This document shows positions 11,469-46,051 of a stretch of DNA of 64,000 bases, one piece after another. The stretch's first letter is position 1; every line of letters starts with the position of its first letter. Location of the stretch: assembly GCA_963778865.1 (NCBI GenBank), contig CAVZWF010000005.1, positions 144,233 to 208,232 of the forward strand, written 5' to 3'. This DNA is from an uncultured beta proteobacterium (GTDB taxonomy: Bacteria > Pseudomonadota > Gammaproteobacteria > Burkholderiales > SG8-41). The position numbers and the translations under genes were made by a program. The notes beneath the pieces are model-generated. The model was given only the letters and a program-made list of their open reading frames with translations, searched no databases and was not told where the DNA came from.

Positions 11469-13976
11469 ATGACGCTCACTCGCAAATTTCGCTGGCGCTG
11501 CGCCTGTTGTGGCGCGACTGGCGCGCCGGTGAAGTCACGCTGTTGGCGGCGGCGATCGTGATTGCGGTCGGCAGCCTGACCACGGTCAGCTTTTTCACCG
11601 ACCGCGTGCAACTGGCGCTGACGCAGCAGTCGAATCAGTTGCTCGGCGCCGATCTTATCCATCGTGTCGGACCGGCCGTTTGCCGACGAGTTCGCGGCGG
11701 AGGCGCGCGCACGCGGACTGGCGGTGACGCGTTCGCATTGCGTTTTCCGAGCATGGCGAGCTATGGCGGCGAAAGCCTGCTTGTCCGATGTCAAAGTGGT
11801 TGCCGCCGGCTATCCGTTGCGCGGCGAGGTGCGGCTCGCCGACGAATTGTTCGGCGCGGAGCGCATCGCGCGCGACGTGCCCGCCGCGGGCACGGCGTGG
11901 GTGGACGATCGCTTGCTGACGCGTCTTAATGTGAAGTTCGGCGATACGCTGGCGGTGGGTCAGCTGCGCCTGCGGGTTGCCGCGCTGGTGACGCAGGAGC
12001 CCGACAGCGCGATCGGCTTTCTCAACAGCGCGCCGCGGCTGCTGATGAACGAAGCCGATATCGCCGCCAGCGGTCTCATCCAGACCGGCAGCCGCGTGCG
12101 CTACCGCTTGTACGTGGCAGGCGACACGCCGGCGGTCGACGCCTACCGGACGTGGGCGCAGACGCGCATCGGCGCCGGGCAGAGCATCGAAGGCATACGC
12201 GACGCGCGGCCGGAAATCCGCTCGGCGCTCGAGCGCGCCGAGCGCTTTCTCGGTCTCGCCGCGCTGGTCAGCGTGGTGCTGTCGGCGGTCGCGATTGCGC
12301 TCGCGGCGCGGCGTTTTCTGCGCCGCCATCTCGACGGTTGCGCGGTCATGCGGTGCATCGGCGCGCGGCCAGCCGAAATCGTGCGGCTTTATCTGCTGCA
12401 TTTCGTTGTGCTGGGGATGGTCGCGGGTGTCGCCGGGTGCGTGATCGGCTATGCGGCCCAATTCGTGCTGGCAACGTGGCTCGGCAGTTTTCTGGCGGTC
12501 GCGTTGCCGTGGCCCGGGCTGTCGCCGGCAGGTTACGGACTCGCGGCGGGCGTGCTCTTGTTGCTCGGTTTCGCGTTGCCGCCGCTGGTGAGTCTCGCGC
12601 AGGTGTCGACGCTGCGCGTATTGCGCCGCGATCTGGGCGTGCCGCGGGGCATGGGCGCCGCGGGTTACGCGCTGGGACTCGCGGTGATATGCGGCCTCGT
12701 GTTGTGGAAGGCGCAGGATTTGCGGCTGGGCGCGTACGTGCTGGGCGGCTTTCTCGCGCGCGGCCGCGGTGTCGGTTGTGCTGGTGCTCGCGGTATTGCG
12801 CGCTGCTCGCGCGCGTGCGCGGCTACCGGCGGCGTCAGCTTTCGCTACGGGCTTGCCAACCTGCAGGCGCCACGCGCTGGGCAATACGATACAGGTGGTC
12901 GCGCTCGCCCTGGGCATGATGGCGCTGTTGACGTTGACGCTGATACGCGGCGACCTCCTGCGCAGCTGGCAGGCGACGTTGCAGCCCGATGCGCCGAACC
13001 GCTTCGTGATCAGCATCCAGCCCGAACAGGTGCAACCGCTGAACGCTTTTTTTGCGGCGCACGGCATCGCGCAGCCCGCCGTGTTTCCGATGGTGCGCGG
13101 GCGGCTTGATCGCGATCAACGGCCGCGCGGTATCGTCGAACGATTACGCCGAAGACCGCGCCAAGCGGCTGATCGACCGCGAATTCAATTTGTCGTGGGC
13201 CGAGCACATGCAGCCCGACAACCGGCATCGTCGCGGGACGCTGGTGGGACGGCGGCGCCGGCCGCGCCGACCAGCTGTCGGTCGAAGAGGGCATTGCGGC
13301 CACGCTGGGACTCAAGCTCGGCGACCGGCTCACCTACGACGTGGCGGGCAGCCATTTCGACGCGACGATTACGAGCTTGCGCAAGGTCGAGTGGGACACG
13401 TTCCGCGCGAATTTTTTCGTGATCGCGCCGCCGCAGTTGCTGCAGGGTTTTCCGGTTTCCTACATGACCAGCTTGTTCGTGCCGCCGGGACAGGCCGCGA
13501 TGCTCAACGAGCTTGTACGCGAGTTTCCCAATCTGGTGGTGGTCGACGTCGCGCAAATCATGGCGCAGGTGCAGAAAATGATGGACCAGGTCGCGAGCGC
13601 GGTGCAGTTCGTGTTTCTGTTCACGCTCGCGGCGGGACTCATCGTGCTGTATGCGGCGATCGCGAGCACGCGCGACGAGCGCGAATACGAAGCCGCGGTG
13701 ATGCGCACGCTGGGCGCGACCCGCCGGCAGATCGCGGCGACCCAGTTTGCCGAGTTTGCCCTGATGGGCGCGCTCGCCGGGCTGCTCGCGGCCGGCGGCG
13801 CGAGCGCGTTGGGTTACGCGCTTGCGCTCAAGGTTTTGAACGTGCCGTATGCCGGCAGCGCATGGATCTGGCTGATCGGCCCCGGCGCGGGCAGCGCGGG
13901 CATTGCGGCGGCCGGCATGCTGGGCGCGCGGCGCGTGCTGGCGACCTCGCCGATCCGCGTTTTGCGCGAGGCGTGA
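11469..13976 (+). CDS. ybbP: FtsX-family ABC transporter permease (YbbP-like, about 830 aa), at least five frameshifts
   Basis: Pieces in ORFs 11132..11929, 11664..13109, 12769..13422, 13052..13996 and 13341..13976. Two FtsX-type permease modules. Confidence 0.8.
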
Positions 13977-22204: not shown

Positions 22205-22708
22205 ATGGATGACCATCAATCCGACCGTCACCGTGCATGCCCGGTGGCGGTCATCATGGAATGCACGACGCTGGCCGACAACCGCTGGCAGACTGCGCAG
22301 TGGGAAGCCAGCGGGCGTAGTGCGCGACACGGCGCCGCGCGGCGCCGCCGAGCAAGTGATCGTACGCGACGAAAAGCGCACGCGGATCGTATTCTCCGGG
22401 GCATCAGATACGGCTGCTATCGCGACGAAGCGGAAGGCTATCTGCTCAACATCACCTCGCCGCAGCCCAAGGTCTTCGTGTTGTGGCGCATGGACGACGA
22501 GGTCGCGCGACCGCAGCGCGTGACCGTCAGTTATCACGAAGGCGCGCGCTGGATGGACAGCGACGAACGGGTGGACGGCGTGCCGCTGCCCGCGGAACTC
22601 GTGCCATGGATACGCGAATTCGCAACGCGGCATTACACGCCCGAGGTGAAGAAGGCGAAACGCTACGCGAGCAACAAGGACAAGGGCCGCATGGGCCGGT
22701 TCGAGTGA
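22205..22708 (+). CDS. DUF3305 family protein, two compensating frameshifts
   Basis: ORF 22133..22708, with the middle in ORF 22149..22523. AVIMECTTLADNRWQTAQWEASGV...YRDEAEGYLLNITSPQPKVFVLWRM resembles DUF3305 proteins found next to FDH genes (from memory). Confidence 0.7.
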   Translation: MDDHQSDRHRACPVAVIMECTTLADNRWQTAQWEASGRSARHGAARRRRASDRTRRKAHADRILRGIRYGCYRDEAEGYLLNITSPQPKVFVLWRMDDEVARPQRVTVSYHEGARWMDSDERVDGVPLPAELVPWIREFATRHYTPEVKKAKRYASNKDKGRMGRFE

Positions 22709-37535: not shown

Positions 37536-38219
37536 CTATTCGACTGCAATACGCAGGGAAACCGCCGTCGCCCACGGCGCGAATACCAATGCCGCCAGCA
37601 GAAACGCGCCGAGCAGCGACAAATGCGCCGCCGCACCCAGGCCCGCCGCGGTTGCTTCGACCGCGCCGGCGCCAAAAATCAGCACCGGCACGTACAGCGG
37701 CAGCACGAGCAGCGACAGCAGCGCGCCGCCGCCGCGGACCCCCAGCGTGAGCGCGGCGCCGACCGCGCCGATCAGGCTCAGCGTCGGCGTGCCCAGCAGC
37801 AGCGATGCTAGCAGAACCAGCAGCGCATCGGCATCGAGATCGAACTGCAGCCCCAGCAGCGGCGCGATCACGACCAGCGGCAGTCCCGTTGCGAGCCAGT
37901 GCGCGGCGATTTTCGCCAGCACGAGCAGCGACAGCGGGTGCGGCGCGAGCACCATCTGTTCGAGGGTGCCGTCGGCATAATCGCCGGCAAACAGGCGCGC
38001 GAGCGCAAGCATCGAGGCGAGCAGCGCCGCCACCCAGACCACACCGGGCCCGATCAGGCGCAACAGCGCGGCATCGGAACCGACGCCCAGCGGAAAGAGG
38101 CTCGTCACGATCACGAAGAAGATCAGCGTGGTCAGCAAGTCAGCGCGATGGCGCATTGCGCACAGCAGATCGCGGCGGGCGACGGCGCAAATCGCATCCC
38201 ACAGACGCGGCCGGCTCAT
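37536..38219 (-). CDS. ccmB: Heme exporter permease CcmB (intact)
   Basis: 227-aa intact ORF with typical CcmB text (FPLGVGSDAALLRLIGPGVVWVAALLA). Confidence 0.9.
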   Translation of the reverse strand: MSRPRLWDAICAVARRDLLCAMRHRADLLTTLIFFVIVTSLFPLGVGSDAALLRLIGPGVVWVAALLASMLALARLFAGDYADGTLEQMVLAPHPLSLLVLAKIAAHWLATGLPLVVIAPLLGLQFDLDADALLVLLASLLLGTPTLSLIGAVGAALTLGVRGGGALLSLLVLPLYVPVLIFGAGAVEATAAGLGAAAHLSLLGAFLLAALVFAPWATAVSLRIAVE

Positions 38220-38840
38220 GATCCGAGTTCCACGCGCCGCGCGACGCGGGCGGCAATCGGAACTTCCTGATGCGTGGTCAGCACCACCATGCCGCCTGCG
38301 TCGAGATGCGCTTCGAGCAATTCCCGCGTCAGCACCAGTGCGGCGGCGTCGAGCGCCGTGAACGGTTCATCGAGTATCCACAGCGCGCGCGCGGCGCACA
38401 GGCTTAACCGGGCCAGCGCGACGCGGCGGCGTTGTCCCTGCGACAGGGCCTTGCACGGCAAATGATGCAATTCACGAATGCCAAATTTGTGCAGCGCCGC
38501 ATCGATTTCGGCCGGCCCGTCGGGCAGGCCACCGGCGCAGCGCGGAGAACTGCAGATTCTCGCGCGGCGGTCAATTCGTCTTTTACCGCGCTTAAATGCC
38601 CCAGATAGGCGATGTGCGCGCGATATTCGTCGTCCAGCGCGCTGAATATCGCGGCCACACCAGCTGATGGTGCCGGCGGCGGGCGGCAGCAAACCGCACA
38701 GATTGCGCAGCAAGCTTGTTTTGCCGCTGCCATTGGGGCCGCGTACTTCCAGGAGCGTATGCGGCGCCACCGCGAAGTTCGAGATCGGTAAACAGCCGGC
38801 GTTCGCCGCGCACGCATTCCAGGTGAGCTATCTCAAGCAT
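38216..38840 (-). CDS. ccmA: Heme exporter ATP-binding protein CcmA, about three frameshifts
   Basis: ORFs 38592..38840, 38216..38770 (RGPNGSGKTSLLR; LSQGQRRRVALARL; WILDEPFTALD) and 38404..38817. Confidence 0.85.
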
Positions 38841-38936
38841 GTGGCCGCGCCCATCCGCGGGCTCAGGAGGTCATGGACAGCGCGCGATGATACCTTACTT
38901 GAGCGCGCGGCGTGTGCGGATGAATTTGATTGTCCT

Positions 38937-38950
38937 TGATGTAGATCAAC
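38937..38950. promoter_or_regulatory. Perfect FNR/CRP-family box TTGAT-GTAG-ATCAA
   Basis: Exact match to the E. coli FNR consensus TTGAT-N4-ATCAA. A TAGCAT -10-like hexamer at 38972..38977 places the box centre about 40 bp upstream of a predicted rightward start (class II geometry) for the malic enzyme operon. Confidence 0.55.
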
Positions 38951-39072
38951 CTGTCGCGATGGCGGTGTTTTAGCATGAACACCGATCAACGGCGCGCATT
39001 GCGGAACGTCAGACGCGTTCCCTATGCAGAGTCGGTGGTCACTGAATCGCCATCAGAGGAGATACCCAGATC

Positions 39073-40718
<1,646 letters not shown>

Positions 40719-40743
40719 CATGACGGTCATCCGGAGTACGGAC

Positions 40744-41331
40744 ATGATGTTCCAGGTGCGCATACACGGCAGGGGCGGACAGGGCGTGGTGTCGGCGGCT
40801 GAAATGCTGTCGATGGCGGCGTTCGACGAGGGCCGTTACGCGCAGGCGTTTCCGAGTTTCGGTTCGGAGCGCATGGGCGCGCCGGTCATGGCGTTCTGCC
40901 GCATCGACGACAAGGAGATCAGGCTGCGCGAGCCGGTGTTGAATCCCGACGCGCTGATCATCCAGGATCCGACGTTGCTGCATCAGGTCAATCTGTTCAG
41001 CGGCGTGCCGCAGGGCGGTTATATCCTGATCAATTCCACGCGCAGTTTCGACGAACTCGGCATCGGCGAATTCGTGCGCAATTTCGATCATCACCACCTG
41101 TGCACGGTGCCGGCGACCGAACTCGCGCTGAAGCATGTCGGGCGGGCGCTGCCGAACGCGGCGCTGCTCGGCGGATTTGCCGCCATCAGCGGGCAATTGC
41201 AATTCGATTCGGTCGCCAAGGCCATCCAGGCCAAGTTTCCGGGCAAGGTGGGCGCAGCCAACGTCGCGGCGGCGCGGGCGGCCTATGAATTCACGTTGTC
41301 CGCCATCAACGCAGGAGCAGCCCATGCTTAA
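40744..41331 (+). CDS. 2-oxoacid:ferredoxin oxidoreductase gamma subunit (intact)
   Basis: MMFQVRIHGRGGQGVVSAAEMLSMAAF...FPSFGSERMGAP is typical of Por/Vor/Kor gamma subunits. Confidence 0.8.
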   Translation: MMFQVRIHGRGGQGVVSAAEMLSMAAFDEGRYAQAFPSFGSERMGAPVMAFCRIDDKEIRLREPVLNPDALIIQDPTLLHQVNLFSGVPQGGYILINSTRSFDELGIGEFVRNFDHHHLCTVPATELALKHVGRALPNAALLGGFAAISGQLQFDSVAKAIQAKFPGKVGAANVAAARAAYEFTLSAINAGAAHA

Positions 41332-42579
41332 GCAAATGGAAGGCTCGCTCGCCGTCGCGCAAGCGGTCGCCTTGTGCCGGCCGGAAGTGATTTGCGCTTA
41401 TCCGATCACGCCGCAAACGCATATCGTCGAAGGCTTGGGCCAGATGGTGAAGAACGGCGAGCTCGAGAATTGCGAGTTCATCAACGTCGAATCCGAATTT
41501 GCCGCGCTGTCGGTGGCCATCGGCGCATCGGCCGCCGGCGCGCGCAGCTACACCGCCACCGCGAGCCAGGGCATCCTGTTCATGGCGGAAGCGGTCTATA
41601 ACGCGGCGGGCCTCGGGCTGCCTATCGTCATGACCATCGGCAACCGCGCGATCGGCGCGCCGATCAACATCTGGAACGATCATTCCGACAGCATGGCGAT
41701 GCGCGACGCGGGCTGGATCCAGCTGTACGCCGAAACCAACCAGGAAGCGGCGGACCTGCACATCCAGGCGTTCCGGCTGGCCGAGGAGTTGTCGTGCCCG
41801 GTGATGGTGTGCGTCGACGGCTTCATCCTGACCCACGCTTACGATCGCGTGGACATGCCGGACCAAGCGCAGGTCGACGCCTATCTGCCGCCGTTCGAGC
41901 CGGTGCAGGTGCTCGATTGCAACGATCCCGTGTCGATCGGCGCGATGGTCGGGCCCGATGCATTTTTCGAGGTGCGTTATCTGCAACATCACAAACAGCA
42001 ACGCGCGCTTGAGTTGATACCGCAGCTGGCGGCGCGAATTCAAGGCGCAGTTCGGGCGCGACTCGGGCGGGCTCATACGCAGCTTACCGCTGCGAAGACG
42101 CGGAAACGATCGTGGTCGCGCTGGGCTCGCTCGTCGGCACGATCAAGGACGCCGTCGACGAAGCGCGCGCGGGCGGGCATCGCATCGGCGTGGTGTCGAT
42201 TTGCTCGTTCCGGCCGTTTCCGCTGGCGGAGGTGCGCGCGGCGCTGGCGTGGGCGAAGCGCGTCGTCGTGCTCGAAAAATGCCTTGCCGTCGGCATCGGC
42301 GGCATCGTCTCCGACGGCGTGCGCAAGGCGCTGTCGGGAATCCAGCTGAATGGCTACACCGTGATCGCGGGACTCGGCGGCCGTGCGATCACCAAGCAAT
42401 CGCTGCTCAACCTGTTCGGGCGCGCATCGCGCGACGAGCTCGAACAGCTGAATTTCCTCGACTTGAACTGGGACGTCGTCAAGCGCGAACTCGCGCGCGG
42501 CAGGCAGCAGCGCCGCGCCGGTCCGAGCGCCGAAAACATTTTGCGCGACCTGGGTCAGGCCGCGGCGCGCATTGCTTAG
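41324..42579 (+). CDS. 2-oxoacid:ferredoxin oxidoreductase alpha subunit, two frameshifts (about 42034 and 42084)
   Basis: AGGAG RBS then ATG 41324. MLKQMEGSLAVAQAVALCRPEVICAYPITPQTHIVE. ORFs 41135..42349 and 42112..42579. Confidence 0.85.
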
Positions 42580-42588
42580 GAATCGATC

Positions 42589-43581
42589 ATGCCAGTACAA
42601 CCCGTCAAGTTTTATCAGACCGGCACCTTTACCGTCGGCAACCGGCTGCTCGCCGACGCCGAGCGCACCGTGCAGGCCAACATGCGCCGCACCAACTCGC
42701 TCAATTCCGGCCATCGCGCGTGCCAGGGTTGCGGCGAGGCGCTCGGCGCGCGCTACGCGATAGACGCCGCGATGCAGGCCACGGGCAATCAGGTCATGGC
42801 CGTCAATGCGACGGGCTGCCTCGAAGTCTTCTCGACGCCTTATCCCGAAACGTCGTGGCAGATTCCGTGGCTGCATTCACTGTTCGGCAATGCGGCAGCG
42901 GTCGCATCGGGCGTGGCGGCGGCGTTGCGGGTGAAGGGCCGCGCCGGCGTCAAGGTCATTGCGCAGGGCGGCGACGGCGGCACCACCGATATCGGCTTCG
43001 GTTGCCTGTCGGGTATGTTCGAGCGCAACGACGACGTGCTCTACATCTGTTACGACAACGAGGCGTACATGAATACCGGCGTGCAGCGCTCGAGCGCAAC
43101 ACCGCCGGCGGCGCGCACGGCGACCACGATGGCGGTGGGCCAGAATCCCGGCAACGTGTTCGGCACCGGGAAAAACGTGCCGCTGATCGCGATGGCGCAT
43201 CACATTCCGTACGTCGCCACCGCATCGGTGGCGAACCTGCGCGATCTCGAGGTCGAAGGTCATGCGCGCGATGGGCATCGGCGGGTCGCGCTACATACAC
43301 ATTCACGTGCCGTGCCCGCTCGGCTGGGGTTCGGCGCCGGCCGATACGATCAAGATCGCGCGCCTTGCCGTCGAATCCGGATTGTTCCCGTTGTTCGAGG
43401 CCGAAAGCGGCGAGATCACCGGGCGCTACAAGCTGCGCCGGCGCGTGCCGGTCGAGGAATATCTGCAAGCCGCAGCGGCGCTTTGCTCATTTGTTCGGCA
43501 AGCACGCCGGACGTGCATACGATCGCGTCGATTCAGGCCATCGCCGACCGCAACGTGCGCACGTTCGGGCTGGCGGAGTAG
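42589..43581 (+). CDS. 2-oxoacid:ferredoxin oxidoreductase beta (TPP-binding) subunit, two frameshifts
   Basis: ORF 42589..43581 with pieces in 43262... HRACQGCGE and GDGGTTDIGF...CYDNEAYMNTG TPP motif. Confidence 0.85.
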   Translation: MPVQPVKFYQTGTFTVGNRLLADAERTVQANMRRTNSLNSGHRACQGCGEALGARYAIDAAMQATGNQVMAVNATGCLEVFSTPYPETSWQIPWLHSLFGNAAAVASGVAAALRVKGRAGVKVIAQGGDGGTTDIGFGCLSGMFERNDDVLYICYDNEAYMNTGVQRSSATPPAARTATTMAVGQNPGNVFGTGKNVPLIAMAHHIPYVATASVANLRDLEVEGHARDGHRRVALHTHSRAVPARLGFGAGRYDQDRAPCRRIRIVPVVRGRKRRDHRALQAAPARAGRGISASRSGALLICSASTPDVHTIASIQAIADRNVRTFGLAE

Positions 43582-43590
43582 AGGCGCCGC

Positions 43591-45218
43591 ATGAAAAAAC
43601 CATTCGCGATTACGCTCGATCCCGGCTCCAGCCTCGCCAACCATACCGGCACCTGGCGCAACAACCGGCCCGTCTATGTCGACCGGCTGCCGCCGTGCAA
43701 CAACGCATGCCCGGCCGGCGAGGATATCCAGGGCTGGCTCTATTACGCGGAAAGCGGCGAATACGAGCGCGCGTGGCGCGAACTGGTAAAGAACAATCCG
43801 ATGCCTGCGCTGATGGGACGCGTGTGCTATCACCCCTGCGAAAACGCCTGCAACCGCGCGAGCCTCGATGAGGCGGTCAGCATACATGCCGTCGAGCGCT
43901 TTCTCGGCGACGAGGCGTCGCAAGCAGGGCTGGAAATTCGAAATCACCGCGCAGCCGTCGGGCAAGCACGTGCTGGTGGTCGGCGGCGGGCCGTCGGGAT
44001 TGTCGGCCGCGTATCATCTCGCGCGGCTCGGGTCACCAGGTCACGATACACGAGGCGGGGCCGCTGGCGGGCGGCATGATGCGCTTCGGCATTCCGAAGT
44101 ACCGGCTGCCGCGCGACGTTCTCGACGCGGAAGTGCAGCGCATACTCGACATGGGCATTACGTTCAAGCTCAATACGCGCGTCGACAATATTCTCGACAC
44201 GATGAAAGCGGGCGGTTTCGATGCGGCGTTTCTGGCGGTCGGTGCGCATGTCGCGAAACGCACGGATATTCCGGCGCGCGACGCCACCCGCATACTCGAT
44301 GCCGTCAGCGTGCTGCGCGGCATGGAAACCGATGCGCGACCCCAGCTCGGACGCCGCGTGGTCGTCTATGGCGGCGGCAATACGGCGCTCGACGTCGCGC
44401 GCACCGCCAAGCGCCTCGGCGCAAGCGAAGCGGTGATCGTCTACCGGCGTACGCGCGAGCAAATGCCGGCGCACGACTTCGAACTGCAGGAGGCGCTCGA
44501 CGAAGGCATCATGGTGAAGTGGTTGAATACCATCACGCGCGTCGAGGACACCACCTTTACCGTCGAAAAAATGGTGCTCGACGACAAGGGCTTTCCGCAG
44601 CCCACCGGCGAGTTCGAGACGATAGAGGCCGACACCCTGATACTCGCGCTCGGGCAGGACGTGGATCTGTCGTTGCTCGACAAAGTGCCGGGGCTCGCCA
44701 TCGAAAAAGGCACGGTCAAGGTCGACCGCAACATGATGACCGGCTACGCGGGCATTTTCGCCGGCGGCGACATGGTGCCGTCGGAACGCACCGTGACGGT
44801 CGCCATCGGGCACGGCAAAAAGGCCGCGCGCAATATCGACGCGTGGCTGCGCGGCAGCATCTACAAGGCGCCGCAGAAGCACGAGGTGGCGCGCTTCGAT
44901 CTGCTCAATACCTGGTATTACACGGACGCGCCCAAGACCGTGCAGCCGGTGCTCGACATCATCCGCCGCCAGTCGAGCTTCGACGAGGTGCTGGGCGGGC
45001 TCGATGAATCCAACGCGTTGTTCGAAGCGCGTCGCTGCCTGTCGTGCGGCAACTGCTTCGAATGCGACAACTGCTACGGCGTGTGCCCCGACAATGCCGT
45101 CATCAAGCTCGGTCCCGGCAAGCGGTTCGAATTCAATTACGACTACTGCAAAGGTTGCGGCATGTGCGCGGCCGAATGCCCGTGCGGCGCGATTACGATG
45201 GTTCCGGAAACGATCTGA
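43591..45218 (+). CDS. GltD-like NAD(P)H-dependent FAD oxidoreductase fused to a 2x[4Fe-4S] ferredoxin domain, two or three frameshifts
   Basis: ORFs 43591.., 43868.. and 44076..45218. CNNACPAGEDIQ...CYHPCENACNR; VVGGGPSGLSAAYHLARLG; C-terminal CLSCGNCFECDNCYGVCP...CKGCGMCAAECP. Confidence 0.8.
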
Positions 45219-45285: not shown

Positions 45286-46051
45286 CTACATCATCACGCG
45301 GCCGCCGTTGACGTCAAGCACCACGCCGTTGATGTAGGCCGCCGCATCCGAGGCGAGGAACAGCATGGCGTTCGAGTGGTCTTCCGACACGGCGAGCCGT
45401 TTCAACGGCACTTGCGCGGCGATGCGCGCGATGTCTTCCTCGGTGCGCAGCGCTTTGACGCGCGGCGTCAGCGTCGTGATCGGCGCGATGGCATTGGCAG
45501 TGATGCCGTCGGGGCCGAGTTGCTGGGCAAGAAAGCGCGTGAGCTGAATGACCGCGGCCTTGGCCGAACCGTAGGCGGGTGACGACGCCGCGGTCACGGT
45601 GCGGCCCGAGATCGACGCCACGCTGATGATGCGGCCGGCTTTCGATTTCTTCAAATGCGGAATGGCGGCGCGCGACATCAGAAAGACGCTGCGCAGATTG
45701 AGCGCGATGGTCTTGTCCCATTCATCGAGCGGCATGTCTTCGACGGTGGCGAGCCTGCCGTAGCCGCCCGCGCAATTGATCAGCACGTCGAGGCCGCCGA
45801 ATTCGGCCACGGTCGCGGCGATCGCGGCGGCCACGGATTTTTCGTCGGTGACATCGGTGCGCACCGACCAGCGCGCGGCCGCCGGCGGCGACGATTTCCG
45901 CGGCGATCGCGTTGGCGCCGGCTTCGTCGATGTCGAGCAGCGCAACGCGCGCGCGCTCCTTGGCAAACGCACGCGCAGTGACCGCGCCTATGCCTTGCGC
46001 GGCGCCGGTAATGGCAACGATGCGTCCGGCGAATTCAGGATATGACGGCAT
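45286..46051 (-). CDS. Short-chain dehydrogenase/reductase (FabG-like), one frameshift near 45900
   Basis: ORFs 45722..46123 (RIVAITGAAQGIG) and 45286..45972 (YGSAKAAVIQLTR, the YxxxK motif). Confidence 0.8.

Follow-up and report, generated by a model that had tools for sequence, protein, structure and literature searches.

A predicted class II FNR site at the 5' end of a malic enzyme and 2-oxoacid oxidoreductase operon in an uncultured betaproteobacterium

The window analysed here, a stretch of 64,000 nucleotides (G000:C5:144233-208232), belongs to the genome of an uncultured betaproteobacterium that was assembled as 3.98 Mb in 15 contigs with about 63% G+C. It carries five consecutive genes on the plus strand, beginning with maeA and continuing through porG, porA and porB to a gene in which a GltD-like flavoprotein is fused to a PorD-type delta domain (Table 1). 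The fusion protein matches Pfam Fer4_20, Pyr_redox_2 and Fer4, as well as NCBIfam PRK12771 (521 bits) and PorD_KorD. Intergenic gaps within the cluster are minimal, the next gene (45286..45972) is convergent, and we infer that the five genes are co-transcribed. The longest porG reading frame begins at 40702, before the end of maeA at 40718; the likely start, judging from the MFQVRIHG of relatives, is the MMFQVRIHG encoded from ATG 40744 or 40747, with a GGAG ahead of it at 40733. On the opposite strand ccmA diverges from maeA, and the 232 bp of intergenic DNA between the two genes contain a 14-bp palindrome of the FNR type, TTGATGTAGATCAA. The start codons of maeA (39073) and of ccmA (38840, minus strand) lie where the initial annotation had placed them.

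Table 1. Features of the maeA-por locus and of its divergent neighbour (window positions)
Feature	Position	Strand	Basis or remark
ccmA, divergent neighbour	38216..38840	-	start codon 102.5 bp from box centre
Possible ccmA -10, TATCAT	38887..38892	-	sequence reading; box then at about -62.5, class I-like; speculative
Candidate FNR box, TTGAT-GTAG-ATCAA	38936..38949		palindromic consensus, perfect; centre 38942.5
-10-like hexamer TAGCAT	38971..38976	+	21 nt 3' of box; predicted transcription start at about 38983
Shine-Dalgarno-like GAGGAG	39056..39061	+	11 nt 5' of maeA ATG; sequence reading
maeA, NAD-dependent malic enzyme, first gene	39073..40718	+	Pfam malic, Malic_M; NCBIfam NF010052
porG (PorC), gamma subunit, pyruvate-type 2-oxoacid oxidoreductase	40744..41331	+	Pfam POR; NCBIfam PorC
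porA, alpha subunit, in two frames	41327..42579	+	profile matches
porB, beta (TPP-binding) subunit	42589..43581	+	C-terminal part apparently out of frame
GltD-like NAD(P)-binding flavoprotein fused to PorD-type 2x[4Fe-4S] delta domain, last gene	43591..45218	+	two frames

Several of these genes are interrupted in the assembly. Compared with the intact 546-amino-acid gene at the closest orthologous locus, L008, which comes from a Betaproteobacteria MAG, maeA contains five single-base insertions (at about 39142, 39512, 39629, 40633 and 40676), none of them in a homopolymer, and ccmA, porA, porB, the gltD-like gene and the fnr gene described below are likewise split across frames. CheckM puts the completeness of this 4-Mb genome at 64%. 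The pattern resembles that of a long-read assembly left unpolished more than that of decaying genes. If the frameshifts in fnr and in the operon were real and not errors of assembly, the system would be a decaying one. No such insertion accounts for the spacing between the box and the -10-like hexamer, because the comparison with L008 shows no gap at that point.

The palindrome agrees with the TTGAT-N4-ATCAA consensus at 10 of the 10 specified positions, as the initial annotation had reported, and TAGCAT does follow it, with both elements lying one nucleotide upstream of the positions given there (38937..38950 and 38972..38977) and 21 nt apart. The text of the window at this point reads ...gtccTTGATGTAGATCAAcctgtcgcgatggcggtgtttTAGCATgaac..., and the box centre is 130.5 bp from the maeA start codon. 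The class II geometry near -40.5 that the initial annotation proposed is also what the hexamer predicts if the transcription start is placed 7 nt past TAGCAT, and the same spacing is found in relatives. TAGCAT is itself a weak -10 hexamer from which the start is deduced. A promoter scan of 38700..39200 found no sigma-70 -35/-10 pair, which points to a weak or absent -35 element, as expected of an activator-dependent promoter, and an Rfam search of 38750..39150 gave no match at E<=1 to a riboswitch or other leader RNA family. A terminator-like hairpin at 38951..38965, between the box and the -10-like hexamer, was treated as a chance match. There is also an additional TTGAT half-site at 38926..38930, exactly 10 bp 5' of the left half-site of the box, for which the L008 equivalent is TTGCT.

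The box is no chance match. Two perfect boxes occur in the window, compared with an expectation of 0.02, and none of 100 dinucleotide shuffles reached two; genome-wide there are 27, where mononucleotide composition predicts 0.53. TTGAT-N4-ATCAA ranks first of 80 half-site palindromes matched for composition, the next best having nine occurrences and the median being zero. The context of open reading frames, together with inspection, places about 21 of the 27 between genes and about six within coding sequence. The second box of the window, TTGATCGCGATCAA at 13106..13119, is one that lies in coding sequence, inside a large gene for an FtsX-type ABC permease (...RLIAING...), and is probably not a promoter element. 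When one mismatch was allowed, a single further site appeared in the window, at 22206, which is not above chance.

The genes that follow the perfect boxes elsewhere in the genome were called by GC3, a crude procedure here because of the frameshifts, so that targets are named only where Pfam confirmed them. They include a HemN gene (box at C11:269158), a gene for a NarK-like MFS transporter (C11:310701) and a hemerythrin gene (C11:392606), together with genes for a nitronate monooxygenase, NuoA and an OmpA-like barrel. The CcoN/COX1 gene, which is divergent to a gene for a Crp/Fnr paralogue, L002, is preceded by a pair of perfect boxes at a distance of 46 bp from each other (C11:321705 and C11:321751). 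A TAnnnT hexamer is found 21-22 nt past the boxes of the ccoN, narK-like, ABC binding-protein and histidine-kinase genes of this genome, and near-matches stand at that distance before hemN (GATACT) and the nitronate monooxygenase gene (AAGAAT). Over-represented boxes in front of low-oxygen genes are the signature of what is, by prediction, a working FNR-type regulon.

A regulator fitting such a regulon was looked for in the genome, a check suggested at the outset, and an Fnr orthologue was found at C11:~271.7-272.5 kb. Against NCBIfam NF008365 ('fumarate/nitrate reduction transcriptional regulator Fnr'; full-length cut-off 228) the 193-amino-acid fragment encoded there reaches 216 bits, and against the structure of Aliivibrio (A. 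fischeri) FNR (5cvr) it reaches 171 bits. Its ETVSR recognition helix, of the type that reads TTGAT, aligns with ETISR of 5cvr, and its VCEIPF aligns at the equivalent of Cys122. The DNA upstream of the fragment encodes ...CQTCGLRELCLPAGLSP..., in which CQTCGLRELC supplies a Cx2Cx5C cluster that is read only across assembly frameshifts. All four predicted cysteine ligands of a [4Fe-4S] cluster are thereby present, and the Fnr orthologue is the most likely binder of the box.

Comparison with orthologous operons provides the strongest indication of which genes the box serves. GTDB representative genomes were scanned with the C-terminal part of the malic enzyme, giving 80 loci. At L008, where the proteins are 89-96% identical and the arrangement is syntenic (ccmB-ccmA divergent from maeA-porG-porA-porB-gltD-like), the box is TTGATTTGGATCAA and is followed after 21 nt by TACGAT; taken by itself the pair of window and L008 is weak footprinting evidence, because identity is 76% over the whole intergenic region. 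Among more distant maeA loci, perfect boxes stand before maeA in a Betaproteobacteria MAG (L014, TTGATCTGAATCAA) and a Rhodocyclaceae MAG (L020, TTGATTATTATCAA), and boxes with one mismatch in a Gammaproteobacteria-labelled MAG (L010), a Bradyrhizobium MAG (L015, TTGATCTCTGTCAA) and a Burkholderiales MAG (L032). None of these five loci has ccm or por neighbours, and the box is at an equal distance from maeA, with a -10-like hexamer 21-22 nt past it that is clearest in L010 and L020. Within the 290 nt before maeA a box with at most one mismatch was found at 8 of the 74 loci that had enough upstream sequence, where the remainder of those loci would predict 0.77.

In four further loci (L012, L023, L026 and L041) the gene order is porG-porA-porB-gltD-maeA, and here the box is found in front of porG, 100-120 nt 5' of the FQVRIHG motif at the porG start, in all four of the corresponding upstream regions (L114, L116, L117 and L115, respectively). 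That of a Usitatibacteraceae MAG, L114, has TTGATGTGCATCAA with an identical TAGCAT 21 nt on; L116 has the perfect box TTGATTTCGATCAA, L117 a box with one mismatch, and L115 TTGACCTGCGTCAA, with two. Boxes with one mismatch also precede porG at L094, L099 and L103, which belong to a separate sample from the same GTDB order. Altogether 9 of 19 por-first loci carry a box with at most two mismatches within 220 nt, where about 0.1 would be expected per locus. Conservation is patchy, a near-consensus box being absent at 66 of the 74 maeA loci and at about half of the por-first loci. Since the box stands before maeA or porG, whichever comes first, it follows the 5' end of the operon, and this tracking is the best available argument that the box would regulate the maeA-por operon.

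The arrangement may be compared with promoters that have been characterized elsewhere. Of 23 directly activated E. coli promoters whose transcription start is known, 19 have an FNR site at -41.5 +/-4, a range that takes in the -40.5 predicted here; a site at -40.5 is listed for focA-pflB, for yfiD and for the nickel transporter operon (PMC3688515). As at the class II promoters of narG, dmsA and nirB (-41.5) and of focA-pflB and yfiD (-40.5), a 14-bp TTGAT-N4-ATCAA covers the -35 region, its centre about 40.5-41.5 nt before the predicted start of a weak promoter that has no -35 element, and as with pflB and yfiD the target is an operon of anaerobic pyruvate metabolism. The regulator, too, resembles E. 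coli FNR in its four cysteine ligands and its E--SR helix (PMC3688515). Unlike the E. coli system, the host is an uncultured betaproteobacterium with a MAG-grade assembly, and the promoter is a predicted one. By these features the site would be expected to act as a textbook case of class II activation by FNR.

Of the promoters tested in betaproteobacteria, the closest analogue is the cld promoter of Ideonella dechloratans, which is class II and FNR-activated. Its box matches at 9/10 positions, has its centre 105.5 bp upstream of the ATG and is accompanied by the weak -10 element GAAGAT; reporter fusions in fnr+ and delta-fnr strains of E. coli showed that the promoter depends on fnr (PMC7349173). 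The Ideonella FNR has four cysteines and ETxSR, and in the class II model the transcription start was set 41.5 nt past the box (PMC7349173). The two promoters belong to the same bacterial class and share a weak -10 (TAGCAT in the window) and a box centred somewhat more than 100 bp from the start codon, at about 105 bp in cld and 130.5 bp in maeA. They differ in the target gene, and the maeA promoter is a prediction whereas that of cld is reporter-tested. A CRP/FNR-family motif before an NAD-malic enzyme gene also has a precedent in a Nitrospira MAG, where the site was predicted for NnrR and anoxic induction had metatranscriptome support (PMC8510549). That case is from another phylum, was assigned to another regulator and makes no mention of por genes, while the present one is a sequence prediction. 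Finally, the TTGA..TCAA half-sites are of the type seen in Bradyrhizobium FixK2 boxes (structure 4i2o), and the Bradyrhizobium locus L015 has its box at the equivalent position. FixK2 was the second-best structural relative of the Fnr fragment. It lacks an Fe-S cluster and is under FixLJ control, whereas the Fnr orthologue has the FNR set of cysteines.

Together these findings favour, with a probability of roughly 0.7, the reading that the 14-bp palindrome is a functional binding site for an FNR-type dimer that would activate the maeA-por operon in class II fashion. The interpretation offered in the initial annotation, an FNR-type box for the maeA operon, is thus supported by the presence of an Fnr orthologue, by canonical targets that carry the same box, by the lack of a sigma-70 promoter in the scanned region and by the relatives. 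Under low oxygen holo-FNR would dimerise and bind the box. The promoter would be a weak one, with TAGCAT as its -10 and with the box overlapping the place of the missing -35 element. From about -40.5/-41.5 the bound dimer would recruit RNA polymerase, and transcription would proceed from about 38983 through maeA-porG-porA-porB and the gltD-like/porD fusion gene to 45218. The products are predicted to convert malate to pyruvate, from which a 2-oxoacid oxidoreductase of the pyruvate type, oxygen-labile and equipped with its own NAD(P) module, would form acetyl-CoA. We infer activation, as opposed to repression, and a response to oxygen. The 2-oxoacid:ferredoxin oxidoreductases are oxygen-labile enzymes, which makes anaerobic activation of the operon sensible.

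It is also conceivable, if unlikely, that a functional box is occupied chiefly by a different Crp/Fnr paralogue whose recognition helix is likewise E--SR, namely the FixK/FtrB/Dnr-like L002. The signal would in that case be NO or a FixK-type cascade, not direct sensing of O2. Six loci of the genome score above the HTH_Crp_2 cut-off. L002, which adjoins ccoN at C11:~322 kb, has a PEYFSR helix, has its best NCBIfam matches in FtrB and FixK, and has no N-terminal cysteine cluster in the frames printed. Additionally, the motifs of FNR, DNR and NnrR are nearly indistinguishable, and the malic enzyme precedent was assigned to NnrR (PMC8510549). Against this assignment are the true Fnr orthologue with its four predicted ligands, the co-occurrence of a perfect palindrome with hemN, ccoN and narK targets, which fits an Fnr regulon, and the fact that the maeA box is indistinguishable from the boxes at canonical Fnr targets. 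The two perfect boxes at ccoN are situated 5' of L002's own gene as well, which suggests a cascade from Fnr to the paralogue with autoregulation.

Still less probable is that the FNR dimer also, or instead, serves the divergent ccmABCD genes as a class I activator, about -62.5 from the TATCAT hexamer. The ccmA ATG is 102.5 bp from the box centre, on the minus strand the hexamer stands 43 nt away from the box in a GATGATACC context that is kept in L008, and the ccmA side has no -35 element either; a few FNR-activated promoters of E. coli have their sites near -60.5/-61.5 (PMC3688515). Class I FNR promoters are rare, however, and at loci that have no ccm neighbour the box goes with maeA or porG. 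The suggestion that ccmA might also be affected found little support when 28 other ccmA loci of the order were compared, as a box with at most one mismatch within 400 nt upstream recurred at only two of them, for which reason ccmA is unlikely to be the main target and was rejected as such. A combined model, in which one FNR dimer at the shared site would drive both units, as class II activator (about -40.5) of the malate-to-acetyl-CoA operon and as class I activator (about -62.5) of ccmABCD, is similarly doubtful. If it were true, cytochrome c maturation would be tied to the anaerobic switch in carbon metabolism, and betaproteobacterial FNR regulons would count the maeA/por/NAD(P)-module operon among their conserved core members, as one not listed before, with the box moving along with the operon 5' end.

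That the box is a non-functional match, is bound by FNR to no effect, or is a repressor site appears very improbable. The six or so perfect boxes within coding sequence, that at 13106..13119 included, do indicate that perfect boxes are not always promoters, and some bound FNR sites in E. coli do not regulate transcription (PMC3688515). The maeA box, however, lies between genes, at class II spacing from a -10 hexamer and without a competing promoter. Several lineages repeat both box and spacing at the start of the orthologous operon, with differing spacers and even with another first gene. A sigma-54 promoter overlapping the proposed -10, with the FNR box incidental, is barely credible and was rejected: the sequence TGGCGG-N5-TAGCA (38960..38975) does read as a GG-N10-GC pattern with exact -24/-12 spacing (GG at 38961-62, GC at 38973-74), but the GC is lost in L008 (TACGA) and L114 has no GG at the required distance, while both keep the TAnnnT hexamer 21-22 nt past the box, and neither a gene for an enhancer-binding protein nor an upstream activator site was recognised in the vicinity.

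In the literature searched, no report was found of the maeA-por-NAD(P) module as an FNR target, and for E. coli maeA nothing relevant to its control by FNR came to light; neither maeA nor ydbK occurs in the text of the FNR ChIP-seq paper on that species (PMC3688515). The site would tie a widespread but biochemically uncharacterised set of enzymes, namely an NAD-malic enzyme and a pyruvate-type oxidoreductase whose delta subunit has an NAD(P) flavoprotein module, to the predicted low-oxygen FNR regulon of uncultured betaproteobacteria. It leads to the prediction that in these organisms pyruvate dehydrogenase is replaced by an oxygen-labile, NAD(P)-linked route once oxygen runs out. Knowledge of how FNR works is unchanged by the box, which is an ordinary predicted regulatory site, useful for annotation of the operon and as a simple handle for finding the same module in other genomes. 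Elsewhere in the genome, the perfect box at C3:35431, which lies about 120-150 bp 5' of nuoA of the NADH dehydrogenase I operon and 3' of secG, may reflect FNR control of complex I.
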